DNA of 7,405 bases from a virus (taxonomy: Duplodnaviria; Heunggongvirae; Uroviricota; Caudoviricetes): IMG/VR virus record IMGVR_UViG_2706794665_000010; one strand, 5' to 3'. Below the pieces are notes generated by a model. It was not told where the DNA came from and did not search any database. It saw only the letters and a list, made by a program, of their open reading frames with translations. Of this stretch, positions 3-7,309 are shown in pieces (the first letter of the stretch is position 1; every line of letters begins with the position of its first letter). A program made the translations under genes and the position numbers.

Positions 3-98
3 GGAATATCTCCCCGGCAGCCTTCAGGGAAAAATATCATCAGATGGCTGCTTAAAAAAAGAACAAATGGTAGTGTCCGCTATTGCCAGTACACCTCA
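3..98. repeat. Left copy of a perfect inverted repeat (partner at 7310-7405); covers the upstream region and first ~10 codons of ORF 67-297
   Basis: Reverse complement of 7310-7405 matches 3-98 base for base by manual comparison. Bases 1-2 (gg) would pair with sequence beyond 7405, so the repeat probably runs off-window. Confidence 0.85.
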
Positions 99-297
99 TC
101 CATCACCGAAAAAAATTGGCTTTTACACCATTGGCGATAAAAGCATTTACCTGTATGACCTACGCCGCATGGATGAAATCATGGAGGCTCTTGATAATCG
201 TTCGTCGATGGATTGGTGTGTTGCTGTTCATGATATGAATGCAGGGTTTGATGAAAAGATTTTGTTCCCCTCATCAGTTGAAAGCACTGCGGGTTAA
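67..297 (+). CDS. Hypothetical small protein (76 aa)
   Basis: Open frame ending in TAA at 295-297. No clear Shine-Dalgarno upstream (A-rich). Start and first codons lie inside the inverted repeat. Not recognised. Confidence 0.4.
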   Translation: MVVSAIASTPHPSPKKIGFYTIGDKSIYLYDLRRMDEIMEALDNRSSMDWCVAVHDMNAGFDEKILFPSSVESTAG

Positions 298-307
298 GGA
301 GTAACAC

Positions 308-475
308 ATGACCACTATTACCAAAGAACGTATTGAATTGTTCATTAAAAACCCGCTTGAAAACGGGCTTACCCGTGGTGAACAAATGGAACTGGCACGG
401 ATTGCGCTGGCATCGCTGGAAGCAGAGCCGGTTGTGTTCTGGTTTGAAAAATATCAAGAAGGGGCTACGGCATGA
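308..475 (+). CDS. Hypothetical small protein (55 aa), paralogous to the next ORF
   Basis: Strong SD AAGGAG at 296-301, 6 nt before ATG 308. Stop TGA 473-475 overlaps the next ATG (ATGA). Shares the N-terminus MTTITKERI and the motif [10 protein letters not shown] with ORF 472-816 ([19 protein letters not shown]). Confidence 0.55.
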
Positions 476-816
476 CGACTTTTACCAGAGAGCAGTTAAT
501 AGCTCACGCAGAGGAGACTATTGAAGCACAGAGACTGTGCATACCGGGCACAATCGACCATGACATCATCCGCACATATAAGATGGATATTGCTGTTCTG
601 GAAATCGCACTGGTATCGCTGGCAGCAGAGCCAGCCGGTAAATTGCATGAATACAAACCAGTGGGATATCAGCGTCTGGTCGATGAGTTAACCATGCTGG
701 TAAAGCAGTTAACCTGGCAACTGAGGAAAGCGAAGCCAGACTGCAAATTACCGGATAAGGCGATGAGTTATCTGGAGCGGAACGGACTGATAAGCGTGGA
801 GGATATTTTACGATGA
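472..816 (+). CDS. Hypothetical protein (114 aa), longer paralog of ORF 308-475
   Basis: ATGA start/stop overlap at both ends (472-475 and 813-816). GAAGGGG SD-like element upstream. Protein-like composition. Not recognised. Confidence 0.55.
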
Positions 817-896
817 CCTGGCCTGAAGCATTAACAACGGTAGGAATTGCGATGGCGGTGGCGCTGGTGGTGTATTCGATTTGCCGCTGGGGATAA
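813..896 (+). CDS. Small hydrophobic peptide (27 aa, [27 protein letters not shown]), predicted single transmembrane helix
   Basis: GGAGGA SD at 797-802, about 10 nt before ATG 813. ATG overlaps the stop of the upstream ORF. Too short for the supplied ORF track; translated by hand. Confidence 0.4.
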
Positions 897-1107
897 AAAC
901 GGTTTGCGGGAAAAGGAGAGTTAAGTAGAATTGCAGCGGGTGCTTGAGGCTATCTGTCTCAGGCATGAACACCAAAAGGCAGATAGAGAAAAGCCCCAGT
1001 TAACATTACGCGTCCGGCAAGACGCTTAACATTAATCTGAGGCTCAATCTATGAACGGCAAATCTAGGTTAGCCTCTTACGTGCCGAAAGGCAAGGAGAA
1101 GCAGGCT

Positions 1108-1263
1108 ATGAAGCAGCAAAAGGCGATGTTAATCGCCCTGATCGTCATCTGTTTAACCGTCATAGTGACGGCACTGGTAACGAGGAAAGACCTCTGCGAG
1201 GTACGAATTCGAACCGGCCAGACGGAGGTCGCTGTCTTCACAGCTTACGAACCTGAGGAGTAA
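1108..1263 (+). CDS. hokD: Hok/Gef-family type I toxin (51 aa), closest to HokD/RelF as recalled
   Basis: Translation MKQQKAMLIALIVICLTVIVTALVTRKDLCEVRIRTGQTEVAVFTAYEPEE has the Hok family signature (hydrophobic N-terminal helix, conserved Cys, TGQTEVAVF). SD AAGGAGAA at 1093-1100. The in-frame ATG at 1051 would give a 70-aa form but is not preferred. Confidence 0.9.
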   Translation: MKQQKAMLIALIVICLTVIVTALVTRKDLCEVRIRTGQTEVAVFTAYEPEE

Positions 1264-1332
1264 GAGACCAGGCGGGGGAGAAATCCCTCGCCACCTCTGA
1301 TGGGTCAGGCATCCTCAATGCACCCACACTTA

Positions 1333-1364
1333 ACCCGCTTCGGCGGGTTTTTGTTTTTATTTTC
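1333..1364 (+). terminator. Rho-independent terminator downstream of hok
   Basis: ACCCGC-TTCG-GCGGGT hairpin (6-bp stem, tetraloop) followed by TTTTTGTTTTTATTTT. Confidence 0.7.
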
Positions 1365-3247: not shown

Positions 3248-4098
3248 AACTGGAAGATTTACCGAAATACTACTCCCCAAAATCCCCCGGCCTGACTGAT
3301 GCATCGGCCTCAACGTCGAAAGATGCGCTGAGTATCACTGATGTGATGGCCGCGCAGGGCATGACACAGAATCGGGCTGAGATGGGGGTTTCTGCGTTCC
3401 TTGGGAAAATGGGCATTAGTATGAATGACAGAGAGCGGGCAACAGAATTGCTGACAGAATATGCACTCAGTCGGTGTGATCGCGTGGCGGCGTTAAGAAA
3501 ACTCCCGGCAGAAATAAAACCGGCAGTGATGCGTATTATGGCTTCGTATGCGTTTGAAGATTATGCCCGTAGCGCGGCGAGCAAAAAACAGTGCCCTTGT
3601 TGCTATGGGGAAAAATTTATTGAAAGCGTAGTTTTTACAAACAAGGTCCAGTATCCGGATGGTAAGCCGCCGGTATGGGCAAAGTGTACGAAAGGTGTGT
3701 ATCCGTCTTACTGGGAAGAATGGAAAAAAGTCAGGGAGGTGGTAAAAGTTGCCTGTCCGGAGTGTGGCGGAAAGGGTGAGGTTTCCACCGCCTGTAAGGA
3801 TTGCCGTGGGCGTGGTGTCGCCATTCATCGTGAAGAGTCGGTAAAACGTGGTATGCCTGTTATCAGAGACTGCCAGCGTTGTGGTGGTCGTGGCTATGAA
3901 AGACTACCATCAACGGAGGCATTTAATGCTATATGCGAGGTGACAAACCAGATAACACGCGCGTCATGGGAAAAAACAGTTAAGAAATTCTATGATGCGC
4001 TGGTGACTCGGTTTGATATTGAAGAAGCATGGGCTGAGCGGCAGTTAAAAAAGGTAACTAGGTTGATTTTTCCGGAATCTGTGGTAAATTCGTCATAA
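3244..4098 (+). CDS. Lambdoid late-gene antiterminator Q (284 aa), zinc-finger type
   Basis: N-terminus MKLEDLPKYYSPKSPGL resembles recalled QuuD-type Q proteins. Cys clusters CPCC, CPECGGKG, CKDCRGRG and CQRCGGRG. Followed by a PR'-like promoter and short terminated leader. Confidence 0.88.
   Translation: MKLEDLPKYYSPKSPGLTDASASTSKDALSITDVMAAQGMTQNRAEMGVSAFLGKMGISMNDRERATELLTEYALSRCDRVAALRKLPAEIKPAVMRIMASYAFEDYARSAASKKQCPCCYGEKFIESVVFTNKVQYPDGKPPVWAKCTKGVYPSYWEEWKKVREVVKVACPECGGKGEVSTACKDCRGRGVAIHREESVKRGMPVIRDCQRCGGRGYERLPSTEAFNAICEVTNQITRASWEKTVKKFYDALVTRFDIEEAWAERQLKKVTRLIFPESVVNSS
4063..4090 (+). promoter_or_regulatory. PR'-like late promoter (copy 1) overlapping the 3' end of Q
   Basis: TTGATT (4063-4068), 16-nt spacer, extended -10 TGgTAAATT (4082-4090). 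The TAAATT -10 with upstream TG matches lambda PR' as recalled. Predicted start near 4097-4099. Confidence 0.5.
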
Positions 4099-4101
4099 CT
4101 A

Positions 4102-4163
4102 TGGGCGTTTTATGCCTGACGTTAGAAGAGTTTCTACAACCCGCCGCCGAGCGGGTTTTTTAT
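4102..4163 (+). repeat. 62-nt block (initial transcribed region plus tR') identical to 4950-5011
   Basis: Manual alignment: identical over 62 nt, while the adjacent Q 3' sequence is clearly diverged between the two copies. Confidence 0.85.
4139..4162 (+). terminator. tR'-like rho-independent terminator (copy 1), about 60 nt downstream of the predicted PR' start
   Basis: CCCGC-cgccga-GCGGG hairpin followed by TTTTTTA. Confidence 0.6.
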
Positions 4164-4200
4164 TGCGGAATTAATTACGGACCGTTATTATTCTGCTCCC

Positions 4201-4276
4201 GGCCCTTTAGCTCAGTGGTGAGAGCGAGCGACTCATAATCGCCAGGTCGCTGGTTCAAATCCAGCAAGGGCCACCA
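4201..4276 (+). tRNA. tRNA with CAU anticodon, most like tRNA-Ile2 (ileX/ileZ type); elongator Met not excluded
   Basis: Hand-folded cloverleaf: acceptor GGCCCTT/AAGGGCC, D-stem GCTC/GAGC, anticodon loop CTCATAA, T-arm GCTGG-TTCAAAT-CCAGC, encoded CCA. C4-G69 and C5-G68 are consistent with recalled tRNA-Ile2 determinants. Confidence 0.85.
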
Positions 4277-4572
4277 TCACAAACCGCCATTAGCTTATCA
4301 GGAAGAGCAGACGACACGATNNNNNNNNNNNNNNNNNNNNNNNNNNNNNNNNNNNNNNNNNNNNNNNNNNNNNNNNNNNNNNNNNNNNNNNNNNNNNNNN
4401 NNNNNNNNNNNNNNNNNNNNNNNNNNNNNNNNNNNNNNNNNNNNNNNNNNNNNNNNNNNNNNNNNNNNNNNNNNNNNNNNNNNNNNNNNNNNNNNNNNNN
4501 NNNNNNNNNNNNNNNNNNNNNNNNNNNNNNNNNNNNNNNNNNNNNNNNNNNNNNNNNNNNNNNNNNNNNNNT

Positions 4573-4647
4573 TACGATACGTTGGTGGTTCGGTTTGACA
4601 TTGAAGAGGCATGGGCGGAGCGGCAGTTAAAGAGGGTAACGCGATAG
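4573..4647 (+). pseudogene. 3' remnant of a second, diverged Q gene (visible part YDTLVVRFDIEEAWAERQLKRVTR*)
   Basis: Aligns to the Q C-terminus (YDALVTRFDIEEAWAERQLKKVTR) with substitutions, a roughly 10-nt insertion and an earlier in-frame TAG. At most about 300 nt lies between tRNA copy 1 and this point, so a full Q cannot fit. Confidence 0.6.
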
Positions 4648-4680: not shown

Positions 4681-4949
4681 TGCTNNNNNNNNNNNNNNNN
4701 NNNNNNNNNNNNNNNNNNNNNNNNNNNNNNNNNNNNNNNNNNNNNNNNNNNNNNNNNNNNNNNNNNNNNNNNNNNNNNNNNNNNNNNNNNNNNNNNNNNN
4801 NNNNNNNNNNNNNNNNNNNNNNNNNNNNNNNNNNNNNNNNNNNNNNNNNNNNNNNNNNNNNNNNNNNNNNNNNNNNNNNNNNNNNNNNNNNNNNNNNNNN
4901 NNNNNNNNNNNNNNNNNNNNNNNNNNNNNNNNNNNNNNNNNNNNNNNNN

Positions 4950-5011
4950 TGGGCGTTTTATGCCTGACGTTAGAAGAGTTTCTACAACCCGCCGCCGAGC
5001 GGGTTTTTTAT
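4950..5011 (+). repeat. Second copy of the 62-nt initial-transcribed-region/tR' block, including the terminator hairpin at 4988-5009
   Basis: Identical to 4102-4163; hairpin CCCGC/GCGGG followed by a T-run. Confidence 0.85.
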
Positions 5012-5131
5012 GACTGAAATCGCGTCAGTACAGTAAACGCGCTGGTGGCGGTGAATACCTGTCTTTCAGCTTGCTGGCTTTTTCGACAAGAGTTATTGGT
5101 GTGTCACGTTAACCGGAAAAGGGAAAAAGAC

Positions 5132-5507: not shown

Positions 5508-5774
5508 GNNNNNNNNNNNNNNNNNNNNNNNNNNNNNNNNNNNNNNNNNNNNNNNNNNNNNNNNNNNNNNNNNNNNNNNNNNNNNNNNNNNNNNNNNNNN
5601 NNNNNNNNNNNNNNNNNNNNNNNNNNNNNNNNNNNNNNNNNNNNNNNNNNNNNNNNNNNNNNNNNNNNNNNNNNNNNNNNNNNNNNNNNNNNNNNNNNNN
5701 NNNNNNNNNNNNNNNNNNNNNNNNNNNNNNNNNNNNNNNNNNNNNNNNNNNNNNNNNNNNNNNNNNNNNNNNNN

Positions 5775-6560: not shown

Positions 6561-6600
6561 TATTGAAGAATTAATTACGCGTCGTTATTATGCGGCTCCC

Positions 6601-6676
6601 GGCCCTTTAGCTCAGTGGTGAGAGCGAGCGACTCATAATCGCCAGGTCGCTGGTTCAAATCCAGCAAGGGCCACCA
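6601..6676 (+). tRNA. Second copy of the tRNA(CAU), 76/76 identical to 4201-4276
   Basis: Same cloverleaf. Flanks are similar but clearly diverged (upstream roughly 85% over about 35 nt, downstream diverging after about 30 nt). Confidence 0.85.
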
Positions 6677-7101
6677 TCACATACCGCCATTAGCTCATCA
6701 GGAAAGAGCGCCAGCCTNNNNNNNNNNNNNNNNNNNNNNNNNNNNNNNNNNNNNNNNNNNNNNNNNNNNNNNNNNNNNNNNNNNNNNNNNNNNNNNNNNN
6801 NNNNNNNNNNNNNNNNNNNNNNNNNNNNNNNNNNNNNNNNNNNNNNNNNNNNNNNNNNNNNNNNNNNNNNNNNNNNNNNNNNNNNNNNNNNNNNNNNNNN
6901 NNNNNNNNNNNNNNNNNNNNNNNNNNNNNNNNNNNNNNNNNNNNNNNNNNNNNNNNNNNNNNNNNNNNNNNNNNNNNGAATCCCCCTGTGCGGAGGGGCA
7001 ATCAGCGAGTAGGTATATGGGATAATCGCGGATTCAGGTGCTGGTACTGAATTCACCGGGAGGCACCCGGCATCATGCAATGGCACATAGCGCCACTCTC
7101 C

Positions 7102-7126
7102 AGCCCTCTCCGGAGGGGCTTTTCTG
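7102..7126 (+). terminator. Candidate rho-independent terminator
   Basis: AGCCCT-ctccgga-GGGGCT hairpin (includes one G-U pair) followed by TTTTCT. A weaker candidate than the others. Confidence 0.35.
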
Positions 7127-7309
7127 TGCCGGATACATCACAGTTTCTGGAACCTTAGGTACTACAGTATCAGTCAGGGTGCTATATTTTCAGATGTGAT
7201 GAAAGCCTGTCAGCAGGCAGGGCGTATCGGAAATGACCCAGTAGAGAAAACGTTGACTCAGATACCGGTGCTGAGTTACCGGGAAACCGGCATCACATGA
7301 CCGCTATCC

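Follow-up and report, generated by a model that had tools for sequence, protein, structure and literature searches.

Probable shuffled accessory genes and a candidate membrane microprotein gene upstream of hokD in a lambda-like E. coli prophage

We analyzed a window of 7,405 nucleotides (the whole stretch of DNA taken from IMG/VR virus record IMGVR_UViG_2706794665_000010, a member of the Caudoviricetes), in which positions 308-896 hold three small open reading frames upstream of a hok gene. The features discussed here are as follows.

67-297, plus strand: ORF0, hypothetical protein of 76 aa, encoded by the cistron that comes before ORF1 in the same operon, with its stop codon at 295-297
308-475, plus strand: ORF1, 55 aa, an Eaa-type N-terminal hairpin module (residues 1-41, nt 308-430) followed by a 14-aa tail
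401-429, plus strand: joint repeat copy 1, coding for 10 residues at the end of hairpin helix 2
472-816, plus strand: ORF2, 114 aa, a variant hairpin module (residues 1-54, nt 472-633), a disordered linker and a conserved C-terminal module (residues 68-114, nt 673-813)
604-632, plus strand: joint repeat copy 2, coding for the corresponding 10 residues in ORF2
813-896, plus strand: the 27-aa ORF, a predicted single-pass membrane microprotein gene, with its hydrophobic core at residues 6-24 (nt 828-884)
903-931, plus strand: inferred hok promoter, with -35 TTTGCG at 903-908, a 17-nt spacer and -10 TAGAAT at 926-931
938-1113, plus strand: leader of the hok mRNA with the sok antisense region (match to Rfam RF01794 sok at 112.4 bits, E=1e-25), part of a separate type I toxin-antitoxin system
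1051-1263, plus strand: mok-like frame, containing hok/hokD at 1108-1263
1332-1349, plus strand: intrinsic terminator-like hairpin and T run, after hok

An initial annotation had described three ORFs joined by ATGA overlaps, and both junctions can be read directly from the sequence: the ATG of ORF2 (472-474) overlaps the TGA of ORF1 (473-475), and the ATG of the 27-aa ORF (813-815) overlaps the TGA of ORF2 (814-816). Shine-Dalgarno-like (SD) sites precede all three starts (AAGGAG at 296-301 for ORF1, GAAGGGG at 458-464 for ORF2 and GGAGGA at 798-803 for the 27-aa ORF), and 10 nt separate the stop of ORF0 from the start of ORF1. ORF0 matches PHROG 1714, a family of unknown function (E=5e-37), and a mosaic breakpoint falls inside it, near window position 99.

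A near-identical E. coli prophage places these genes in a long early operon that runs from repressor/Cro, YdaT and the replication genes through about 12 small genes (ead/Ea22-like ones included) to ORF0-ORF1-ORF2, hokD, DUF968, RusA and Q, with 4-nt overlaps between many adjacent genes. This early-operon accessory array context is annotated in NZ_CM136155.1 and in phage vB_EcoS-689R5. Among 5426 complete E. coli genomes, 240 have exactly the gene order of the window, as do about 35 of 120 hok-linked loci.

The resemblance between ORF1 and ORF2 noted in the initial annotation, a common N-terminus and an internal motif, goes beyond chance, and the two products are homologous. BLASTP aligns them with 18 of 54 residues identical (E=1e-5), and the motif is encoded by a 29-nt direct repeat of which the two copies, 401-429 and 604-632, agree at 25 of 29 positions. 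Both products are identical to catalogued hypothetical proteins (ORF1 to WP_000207997.1 and ORF2 to WP_000206826.1), and both match the same PHROG families, 3323, 660, 60 and 5117. The strongest of these matches are to PHROG 3323 (1.3e-19) and PHROG 60 (4e-18) for ORF1, and to PHROG 660 (8e-43, in two stretches) for ORF2. These are families of unknown function, and the searches gave no assignment to nin genes of known function. On the strength of these profile matches, ORF1 and ORF2 are placed in the mosaic "Eaa"-type family found in lambdoid prophages (PHROG 3323/660/60).

The mosaic character of the family is visible in its modules. The N-terminal module of ORF1 also heads DUF550 (PF04447), DUF551 (PF04448) and Eaa proteins, and among homologues the same N-modules are fused to DUF551, to DUF550, to the Eaa middle domain or to the C-module of ORF2. 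At least eight hairpin variants exist, all ending in a near-invariant 10-residue joint, and MAFFT aligned the ORF1 homologues onto the ORF2 hairpin. The ORF2 C-module, marked by ELTMLVKQL and a later stretch of 11 residues, is absent from ORF1; it matches 291 cluster representatives, 50-389 aa long, and always lies at their extreme C-terminus. ORF1 and ORF2 thus share with Eaa-type proteins the N-terminal hairpin, ending in the joint motif, and the location in the early-operon accessory array, and ORF2 shares the C-module as well. They differ in that ORF2 lacks a middle domain of about 80-100 aa and ORF1 lacks any C-terminal module. An AF2 model of ORF2 shows helices at residues 6-26 and 30-51 with pLDDT above 90, disorder at residues 56-62, and C-terminal helices at 64-87, 95-103 and 109-113. 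The pN/pS of ORF2 is 0.18-0.22.

Deleting the 203 nt between the two repeat copies yields a predicted 101-aa protein that is identical to one present in other genomes (P0031), and elsewhere the same modules make up either this fused 101-aa gene or a longer single gene of roughly 190-200 aa. We think it likely that the similarity between ORF1 and ORF2 reflects the sharing of modules by recombination at the 29-nt joint and not a toxin-antitoxin pairing. Other searches added little: ORF0, ORF1, ORF2 and the 27-aa product gave nothing above threshold against Pfam, NCBIfam and PADLOC, a Pfam scan of ten longer relatives returned DUF551 alone, and no meaningful hit came from sequence searches of the PDB, made with a profile of the ORF2 family and with ORF1. 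An AF2 single-sequence model of a natural ORF1-ORF2 fusion (P0001), used as a proxy for packing of one hairpin against the other, had a pLDDT of 38.8 and was uninformative.

The closest precedent is Ea22 of lambda and its variants in Stx phages, in which a conserved N-terminal helical part is joined to interchangeable C-terminal domains, DUF551 among them; the mosaic nature of Ea22 is explicitly documented, and pro-lysogenic activity and tetramer formation have been shown for it (PMC10834534, PMC7093339). Like ORF1 and ORF2, Ea22 is an early-operon accessory protein, and the same array carries ead/Ea22-like genes, a few genes further upstream. ORF1 and ORF2 are much shorter, however, and neither matches Pfam Ead_Ea22 at E values up to 1.

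ORF1 may not be a working gene. In one account, which we hold possible but somewhat doubtful, it is the non-functional 5' remnant of a longer Eaa-type gene that was cut by recombination of the ORF2 gene and is still open because the event was recent. Its full length aligns with the first 68 residues of ORF2-type proteins, it carries no C-terminal module, its tail looks like the beginning of the middle region of longer relatives (PVVYMWD, PVAW), and rare indel variants fuse it to ORF2. Variation in ORF1 is almost nil, so no selection is visible; this is too little for a selection test, and ORF1 may therefore be a dead remnant. Against this account, the 14-aa tail is found behind three hairpin variants, each forming an intact gene of 54-61 aa before an ORF2-type gene, many genomes carry the 55-aa form (cluster P0122, 65 members), and the SD site of ORF1 (AAGGAG) is the strongest of the three.

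Downstream of these genes, the window carries a complete hok locus. The hok gene itself matches Pfam Hok/Gef (E=3e-23) and is labeled hokD by PGAP in near-identical genomes. The inferred hok promoter starts 7 nt past the stop of the 27-aa ORF and fits an Rfam match that begins at 938; it scores below the threshold of the consensus scan, and we therefore count it as an inference. At the equivalent place in phage 933W, sokW is annotated.

The initial annotation had described the three ORFs as standing where relBE would be expected, since K-12 carries relBE directly upstream of hokD. The comparison with K-12 points the other way. In the Qin prophage of K-12, the DNA shared with the window begins no earlier than about 17 nt ahead of the ATG of hokD, so that relBE has there replaced the hok promoter, sok and the start of mok. 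Judged by this alignment, the relBE-hokD arrangement of K-12 is the derived state, and the intact hok/sok/mok leader has been kept in the window. The K-12 relBE-hokD (relBEF) locus resembles the window in having small coupled genes directly upstream of a nearly identical hokD, but relBE has no sequence or family relationship to ORF1, ORF2 or the 27-aa ORF. K-12 YdfW and YdfX were also checked as relatives and are unrelated.

We consider it highly improbable that ORF1 and ORF2, alone or together with the peptide, make up a toxin-antitoxin module or a regulatory module of small proteins in the position of relBE. That proposal draws on the layout of a small gene followed by a larger one, coupled by ATGA and followed by a membrane peptide, on the location directly upstream of hokD that relBE occupies in K-12, and on the lack of an assigned function for all three products. 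Adjacent co-directional small genes with overlaps (472-475 and 813-816) do have the arrangement looked for in type II systems, but 4-nt overlaps are common along the whole prophage operon and are therefore not specific to toxin-antitoxin genes. No toxin-antitoxin or defense model in Pfam, NCBIfam or PADLOC was matched at E values up to 1, and a consensus-based scan found no promoter-like site before 308, where ORF0 ends just upstream, and hence no sign of a promoter belonging to the set. ORF1 and ORF2 are homologues of one another, not a toxin and an antidote of different folds, and the pair is not a conserved unit, being replaced by single fused genes in many loci. The derived state of the K-12 relBE arrangement and the independence of the 27-aa ORF from ORF1 and ORF2, described below, argue against it too.

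The third product had been called a membrane peptide, and its composition bears this out: residues 6-24 have a mean Kyte-Doolittle hydropathy of 2.16, and the value stays between 2.07 and 2.45 across four diverged variants. The first 1.6 kb of the window contain 25 ORFs of at least 20 aa, among which an ORF of 27 codons is by itself unremarkable, so that the case for its reality rests on comparative evidence. Homologues were traced with tblastn, with DNA patterns and by looking up exact matches. About a quarter of complete E. coli genomes (1346 of 5426) have a close copy, which is rarely annotated; the DNA-pattern search of genome contigs gave 5 loci. The range covers Escherichia/Shigella, plus one partial Salmonella record. 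In 121 hok loci, 99 homologous copies lie upstream of hok, of which 91 are intact and two carry an in-frame deletion of one codon.

These copies are not tied to ORF1 and ORF2, and the view of the three ORFs as one unit does not stand: the 27-aa ORF is an independent module found behind unrelated upstream genes. Homology to 933W starts exactly at the ATG of the 27-aa ORF, the gene upstream of it in 933W being unrelated. The 4-nt stop-start overlap and a GGAGG site are kept behind at least five unrelated upstream C-termini, and the start codon switches between ATG and GTG among copies with the overlap retained. Downstream, the start, SD site, length and hydrophobic core are kept before at least five contexts, with or without hok, one of which has a terminator directly after the stop codon. 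Copies lacking hok are found in BP-4795, E. coli ECMA0423 and others, and in BP-4795-type phages copies of about 63% identity still keep 27 codons.

In the diverged copies pN/pS is 0.36 and 0.48, a synonymous excess (Fisher p=0.0014 and 0.04). Among close copies pN/pS lies between 0.14 and 0.94, which speaks for no more than moderate selection, and some of the copies are broken, by a change of W3 to a stop in 2 loci and in phage POCJ13 and by frameshifts in 4 loci. Variable columns fall at codon positions 1, 2 and 3 in the numbers 16, 11 and 20, which are not individually significant. From this comparison we consider the 27-aa ORF to be probably a separate and genuinely conserved gene, predicted to encode a single-pass inner-membrane microprotein.

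The nearest described locus is hokW-sokW-mokW of 933W and Sp5. DNA from the 27-aa ATG through hok is about 92% identical to 933W, and the order of small ORF, hok promoter, sok, mok and hok is the same; the difference is that the 27-aa ORF lies upstream of the hok transcript and is found also without hok. The published description of the hokW-sokW locus (PMC8621323) does not include the 27-aa ORF. In size (below 50 aa), in having one hydrophobic helix and in being often missed by annotation, the peptide resembles microproteins of the KdpF, AcrZ and MgtS type, but it is prophage-borne and has no sequence similarity to them. Profile searches with the peptide returned sub-threshold noise (DUF883_C at 0.029, KdpF at 0.12, the latter below cut-off). 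A cluster look-up had grouped it with DUF551 proteins as though the two were fused; the grouped proteins do not contain the peptide, and we take the grouping for a clustering artefact.

Two other readings of the peptide region have to be weighed against that of a conserved microprotein gene. The 84 nt might be kept as DNA and left untranslated, either as a linker for recombination where ea-type genes end or as an upstream element belonging to the hok promoter. This would fit the usual lack of annotation, the distance of 7 nt to the inferred hok -35 element, the broken copies, and a literature search for the 27-aa sequence that found no mention of it and no translation or expression data. It fits less well with the diverged copies in hok-less contexts, which keep the start codon, SD site, 27-codon length and hydrophobic profile, with the synonymous excess, with the codon deletion being in frame, or with the ATG/GTG alternation that leaves the overlap intact. 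One antisense frame is open in all variants of the region, which could be taken in favor of a DNA-level role; it is the sole open antisense frame, it has no usable upstream start codon in most contexts, and an antisense ORF was rejected as a candidate gene for that reason. We regard retention as untranslated DNA as unlikely.

Still less probable, in our estimation very much so, is that the peptide damages membranes, in the manner of a type I toxin or a holin, or acts as a functional partner of the neighboring Hok. Its size and single hydrophobic helix are like those of small membrane toxins, and it adjoins hok in most of the surveyed hok loci; yet 22 of the 121 have hok without it, just as it occurs without hok. 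The ORF ends at 896, outside the hok transcript as marked by the Rfam sok match from 938, and a consensus scan detected no antisense promoter at it. The peptide has no likeness to Hok/Gef or to any toxin model in Pfam, NCBIfam or PADLOC, and its helix is rich in Ala, Val and Gly with one charged residue per side.

Our preferred interpretation, which we believe to be probably correct, is that the genes at positions 308-896 are accessory genes of an ordinary, shuffled kind in a lambda-like E. coli prophage and not a toxin-antitoxin set. They would be the last three cistrons of an 'ea-like' accessory array in a prophage of the Rac/Qin type, lying between the replication genes and a self-contained hok/sok/mok module. 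Gene order suggests transcription of the array together with the early operon, in which case no expression would be expected in the lysogen. Within the array, a two-helix hairpin would have been recombined onto interchangeable downstream modules, with ORF2 as a minimal member of the family (hairpin, linker and conserved C-terminal helical module) and ORF1 as a hairpin-only protein or else as what is left of the 5' part of a longer gene invaded by the ORF2 gene. By analogy with lambda Ea22, where an N-terminal and coiled-coil part is set against a variable C-terminal domain, the hairpin may serve as a common handle for oligomerization or partner binding, and the C-terminal modules may give specificity. 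Translation of the 27-aa ORF would be coupled to that of the gene before it, be this of the Eaa, DUF551 or Ea22 type, and by the positive-inside rule the product of the ORF likely has its N-terminus outside and its C-terminus inside.

A bolder version, which we offer tentatively and think rather doubtful, is that the 27-aa ORF encodes a functional new microprotein of the inner membrane found in lambdoid prophages, the Shiga-toxin phages 933W and Sp5 among them, made in a fixed ratio with the preceding Eaa/DUF551/Ea22-type protein through stop-start coupling and acting with that protein or on a host membrane target in early lytic development. Separately, a hairpin-only ORF1 might modulate hairpin relatives such as ORF2 by hetero-oligomerization.

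For the biology of these prophages, the analysis removes a false lead, in that no new toxin-antitoxin system appears to sit beside hokD, and the textbook relBE-hokD arrangement of K-12 would be the exception. It also provides what seems a clean case of modules being shuffled at a 29-nt joint, in the region of lambdoid prophages about which least is understood. The mildly new item is a conserved gene for a 27-aa membrane peptide, mostly unannotated and present also in the medically important Stx phages. No long-standing question depends on this peptide, but the hokW-sokW neighborhood makes it easy to test, and if it is made, it would be one more candidate phage microprotein acting at the host membrane.

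The three open reading frames joined by ATGA overlaps in the initial annotation are confirmed by the list of ORFs and by the sequence itself, and a 76-aa gene, ORF0, precedes them:

67-297, + strand: ORF0, 76 aa, with its stop 10 nt before ORF1
296-301: AAGGAG, Shine-Dalgarno-like site of ORF1
308-475, + strand: ORF1, 55 aa
458-464: GAAGGGG, Shine-Dalgarno-like site of ORF2
472-816, + strand: ORF2, 114 aa
798-803: GGAGGA, Shine-Dalgarno-like site of the peptide ORF
813-896, + strand: peptide ORF, 27 aa, a predicted single-pass membrane microprotein

The ATGA overlap occurs at both the ORF1/ORF2 and the ORF2/peptide junctions, and a consensus scan found no promoter-like or terminator-like site dividing the series from ORF0 to the peptide ORF. 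ORF1, ORF2 and the peptide ORF are co-directional, tightly packed cistrons of a prophage early operon. The first 1.5 kb of the window is 98-99% identical to E. coli chromosomes, with at least 80% of it present in 240 of 5426 complete E. coli genomes. In NZ_CM136155.1 the matching region lies inside a Rac/Qin-type lambdoid prophage, which runs from a LexA-family repressor, Cro/CI and YdaT to replication genes, through some twelve small genes, ead/Ea22-like by annotation in several cases, to ORF0, ORF1 (WP_000207997.1), ORF2 (WP_000206826.1) and hokD, and ends with DUF968, RusA and antiterminator Q. The remainder of the window carries a DUF968/RusA/Q/tRNA/methyltransferase block, as expected for such a prophage.

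Several other features of the window were recorded. A mosaic breakpoint falls within ORF0 at about 99-100, where most close E. coli matches start; residues 1-76 of ORF0 are common to six surveyed loci, and most share only residues 12-76. Segments 85-96% identical are duplicated at 3991-4058 and 4573-4640, 4102-4170 and 4950-5018, and 4161-4304 and 6561-6704, comprising the 3' end of the antiterminator gene Q, the terminator-like stretch behind it, and a 144-nt block with tRNA-Met(CAT); tRNA-Met is therefore present twice in the window (4201-4276 and 6601-6676), and the Q 3' end recurs in part. Six masked runs of N (1595-1857, 2053-2304, 4321-4571, 4685-4949, 5509-5774 and 6718-6977) break up several ORFs, the last partly overlapped by an Rfam STnc100 sRNA match (6949-7131).

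The proposed paralogy of ORF1 and ORF2 was borne out by BLASTP (E=1e-5, over their first 41 and 54 residues respectively), by a 29-nt direct repeat (401-429 and 604-632, 25/29 identical) and by common PHROG families. ORF1 matches PHROG 3323 (1e-19) and 60 (4e-18) and ORF2 matches 660 (8e-43, in two stretches), all families of unknown function, and each cross-matches the families of the other. ORF2 as modelled by AF2 (mean pLDDT 78.9) has a two-helix hairpin (6-26 and 30-51, pLDDT >90), then a disordered linker (56-62) and further helices (64-87, 95-103 and 109-113); the repeat codes for the end of the second hairpin helix in both proteins, a near-invariant 10-residue motif that we call the joint. 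In large-scale searches, residues 1 to ~41 of ORF1 head proteins variously named Eaa, DUF550 or DUF551, and residues 1-54 of ORF2 head DUF551 proteins (clusters P0064 and P0066), while the last ~47 residues of ORF2, its C-module, stand at the extreme C-terminus of 50-389-aa proteins in 291 clusters at 50% identity. When 48 relatives were aligned, at least eight distinct N-terminal sequences all ended in the same joint, past which the sequences diverge again. Diverged ORF2 alleles have pN/pS of 0.18-0.22; ORF1 alleles are too alike for this measure. ORF1 and ORF2 are thus Eaa-type mosaic proteins with a hairpin module in common, already catalogued in known, uncharacterised families.

Many other arrangements exist besides the ORF1-ORF2 pair. 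Of 120 hok-linked viral contigs, ~35 have exactly the order ORF0-ORF1-ORF2-peptide-hok; elsewhere among them the ORF1 hairpin begins one longer gene or is fused straight to the ORF2 C-module. One such fusion (P0031, 101 aa) is the exact product of removing the 203 nt between the window's 29-nt repeats, and the 29-nt joint is a site where alternative gene structures differ. Since the whole of ORF1 aligns with residues 1-68 of ORF2-type proteins, ORF1 is a C-terminally short paralogue, which could be a recent 5' remnant or a maintained small gene. Its 14-residue tail also stands behind three different hairpins (P0122, P0240 and P0230), each before an ORF2-type gene, a recurrence that argues mildly for the maintained gene.

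The peptide gene forms a conserved, self-standing unit, coupled to whatever gene precedes it. Similarity between the window and phage 933W begins exactly at the peptide ATG, and 933W carries an intact 27-codon ORF, also with an ATGA overlap, behind an unrelated gene (L0139). A search anchored on the hok promoter region gave 121 hok-linked loci, 99 with a homologue of the peptide ORF (91 intact and in register, 2 with an in-frame one-codon deletion, 6 disrupted) and 22 with unrelated DNA in its place. It follows genes with no fewer than five unrelated C-termini (the Eaa C-module, DUF551, L0139-like and others), and behind every type there is still a 4-nt overlap, ATGA or GTGA, with GGAGG 8-12 nt before the peptide start. 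Copies ~63% identical (tblastn) in BP-4795, VT1-Sakai and YYZ-2008 lie between a DUF551 gene and DUF4222-xis-int, with no hok nearby, and in another context a terminator immediately follows the stop. All diverged types keep 27 codons, a WPEA(F/L) start, a hydrophobic core and a (Y)S..RW(G/R/W) end. For the diverged copies, synonymous differences are in excess (pN/pS 0.36 and 0.48; Fisher p=0.0014 and 0.04).

Unrelated upstream proteins of the DUF551 and 933W L0139 types end alike in QEVN(Q/R) (loci L005-L124, e.g. L087, L123 and L103); because these codons contain the peptide gene's GGAGGTGA Shine-Dalgarno site, the border of the module falls a few codons before the end of the upstream gene.

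Across all variants of the peptide region one antisense frame stays open; its third codon positions coincide with those of the sense frame. We rejected an antisense gene as the source of the conservation, since in most contexts this frame lacks a start codon ahead of the region. In Shigella phage POCJ13 (L128, 1501-1634) peptide residue W3 is replaced by TAG, and RefSeq instead places a 42-aa 'hypothetical protein' (YP_009100295.1) on the opposite strand of this DNA, probably through a false call on the open antisense frame.

Downstream of the peptide gene lie the following:

903-908 and 926-931: TTTGCG and TAGAAT, 17-nt spacer, putative hok promoter just past the peptide stop
938-1113: sok (Rfam sok model, 112 bits)
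1051-1263, + strand: mok-like frame enclosing hok
1108-1263, + strand: hok (Pfam Hok/Gef, 3e-23)
1332-1349: terminator-like hairpin after hok

A complete hok/sok/mok type I module, terminator included, thus spans 938-1350, and the sok match together with the putative promoter indicates that this hok is equipped with a full type I regulatory system of its own. The expectation of relBE upstream of hokD came from K-12 Qin, which proved a derived, atypical reference: its similarity to the window begins only ~17 nt before the hokD ATG, and its entire accessory array is lost. By sequence comparison, relBE took the place of the hok promoter, sok and mok region in K-12. That the three ORFs themselves form a toxin-antitoxin module, as their coupling had suggested, we consider highly improbable; 4-nt stop-start overlaps recur throughout the early operon of the NZ_CM136155.1 prophage, so ATGA junctions are the local norm and not the signature of a special module.

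Close copies of the peptide are present in 1346 of 5426 complete E. coli genomes, with at most five in any one genome. Among GTDB species representatives the gene was found only in E. coli, Shigella flexneri, one Escherichia sp. and two tiny non-enteric contigs that carry it with its flanks, from Xanthomonas pisi (L132, 431 nt, also with the hok promoter) and Acinetobacter idrijaensis (L134, 369 nt); both are most likely assembly contamination. A segment of Actinobacillus phage vB_Apl-pPE4 (PP818812.1, 13011-13649) covering the ORF2 end, peptide and hok is 96.7% identical in nucleotides to window ~718-1355, unexpectedly E. coli-like for a phage attributed to Actinobacillus pleuropneumoniae. 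The peptide is generally unannotated in 933W, VT2-Sakai and Stx2 phage I and by PGAP; the few annotations read 'putative prophage protein' or give a 45-aa N-extended form. The 90%-identity clusters holding 27-aa peptides are represented by DUF551 proteins without the peptide sequence, apparently a clustering artefact. We found no mention of the peptide in the literature, the hokW-sokW study included.

The ORF1, ORF2 and peptide genes would be expressed on induction or infection and not in the lysogen. By analogy with lambda Ea22, which is modular and tetrameric (PMC10834534), the hairpin may be a handle for oligomerisation or for binding a partner, and specificity may come from the C-modules. 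The peptide is predicted to insert in the inner membrane, N-out/C-in, and its output would be proportional to that of its upstream neighbour. It belongs to the broad class of membrane microproteins of phages and bacteria, within which it is essentially undescribed.
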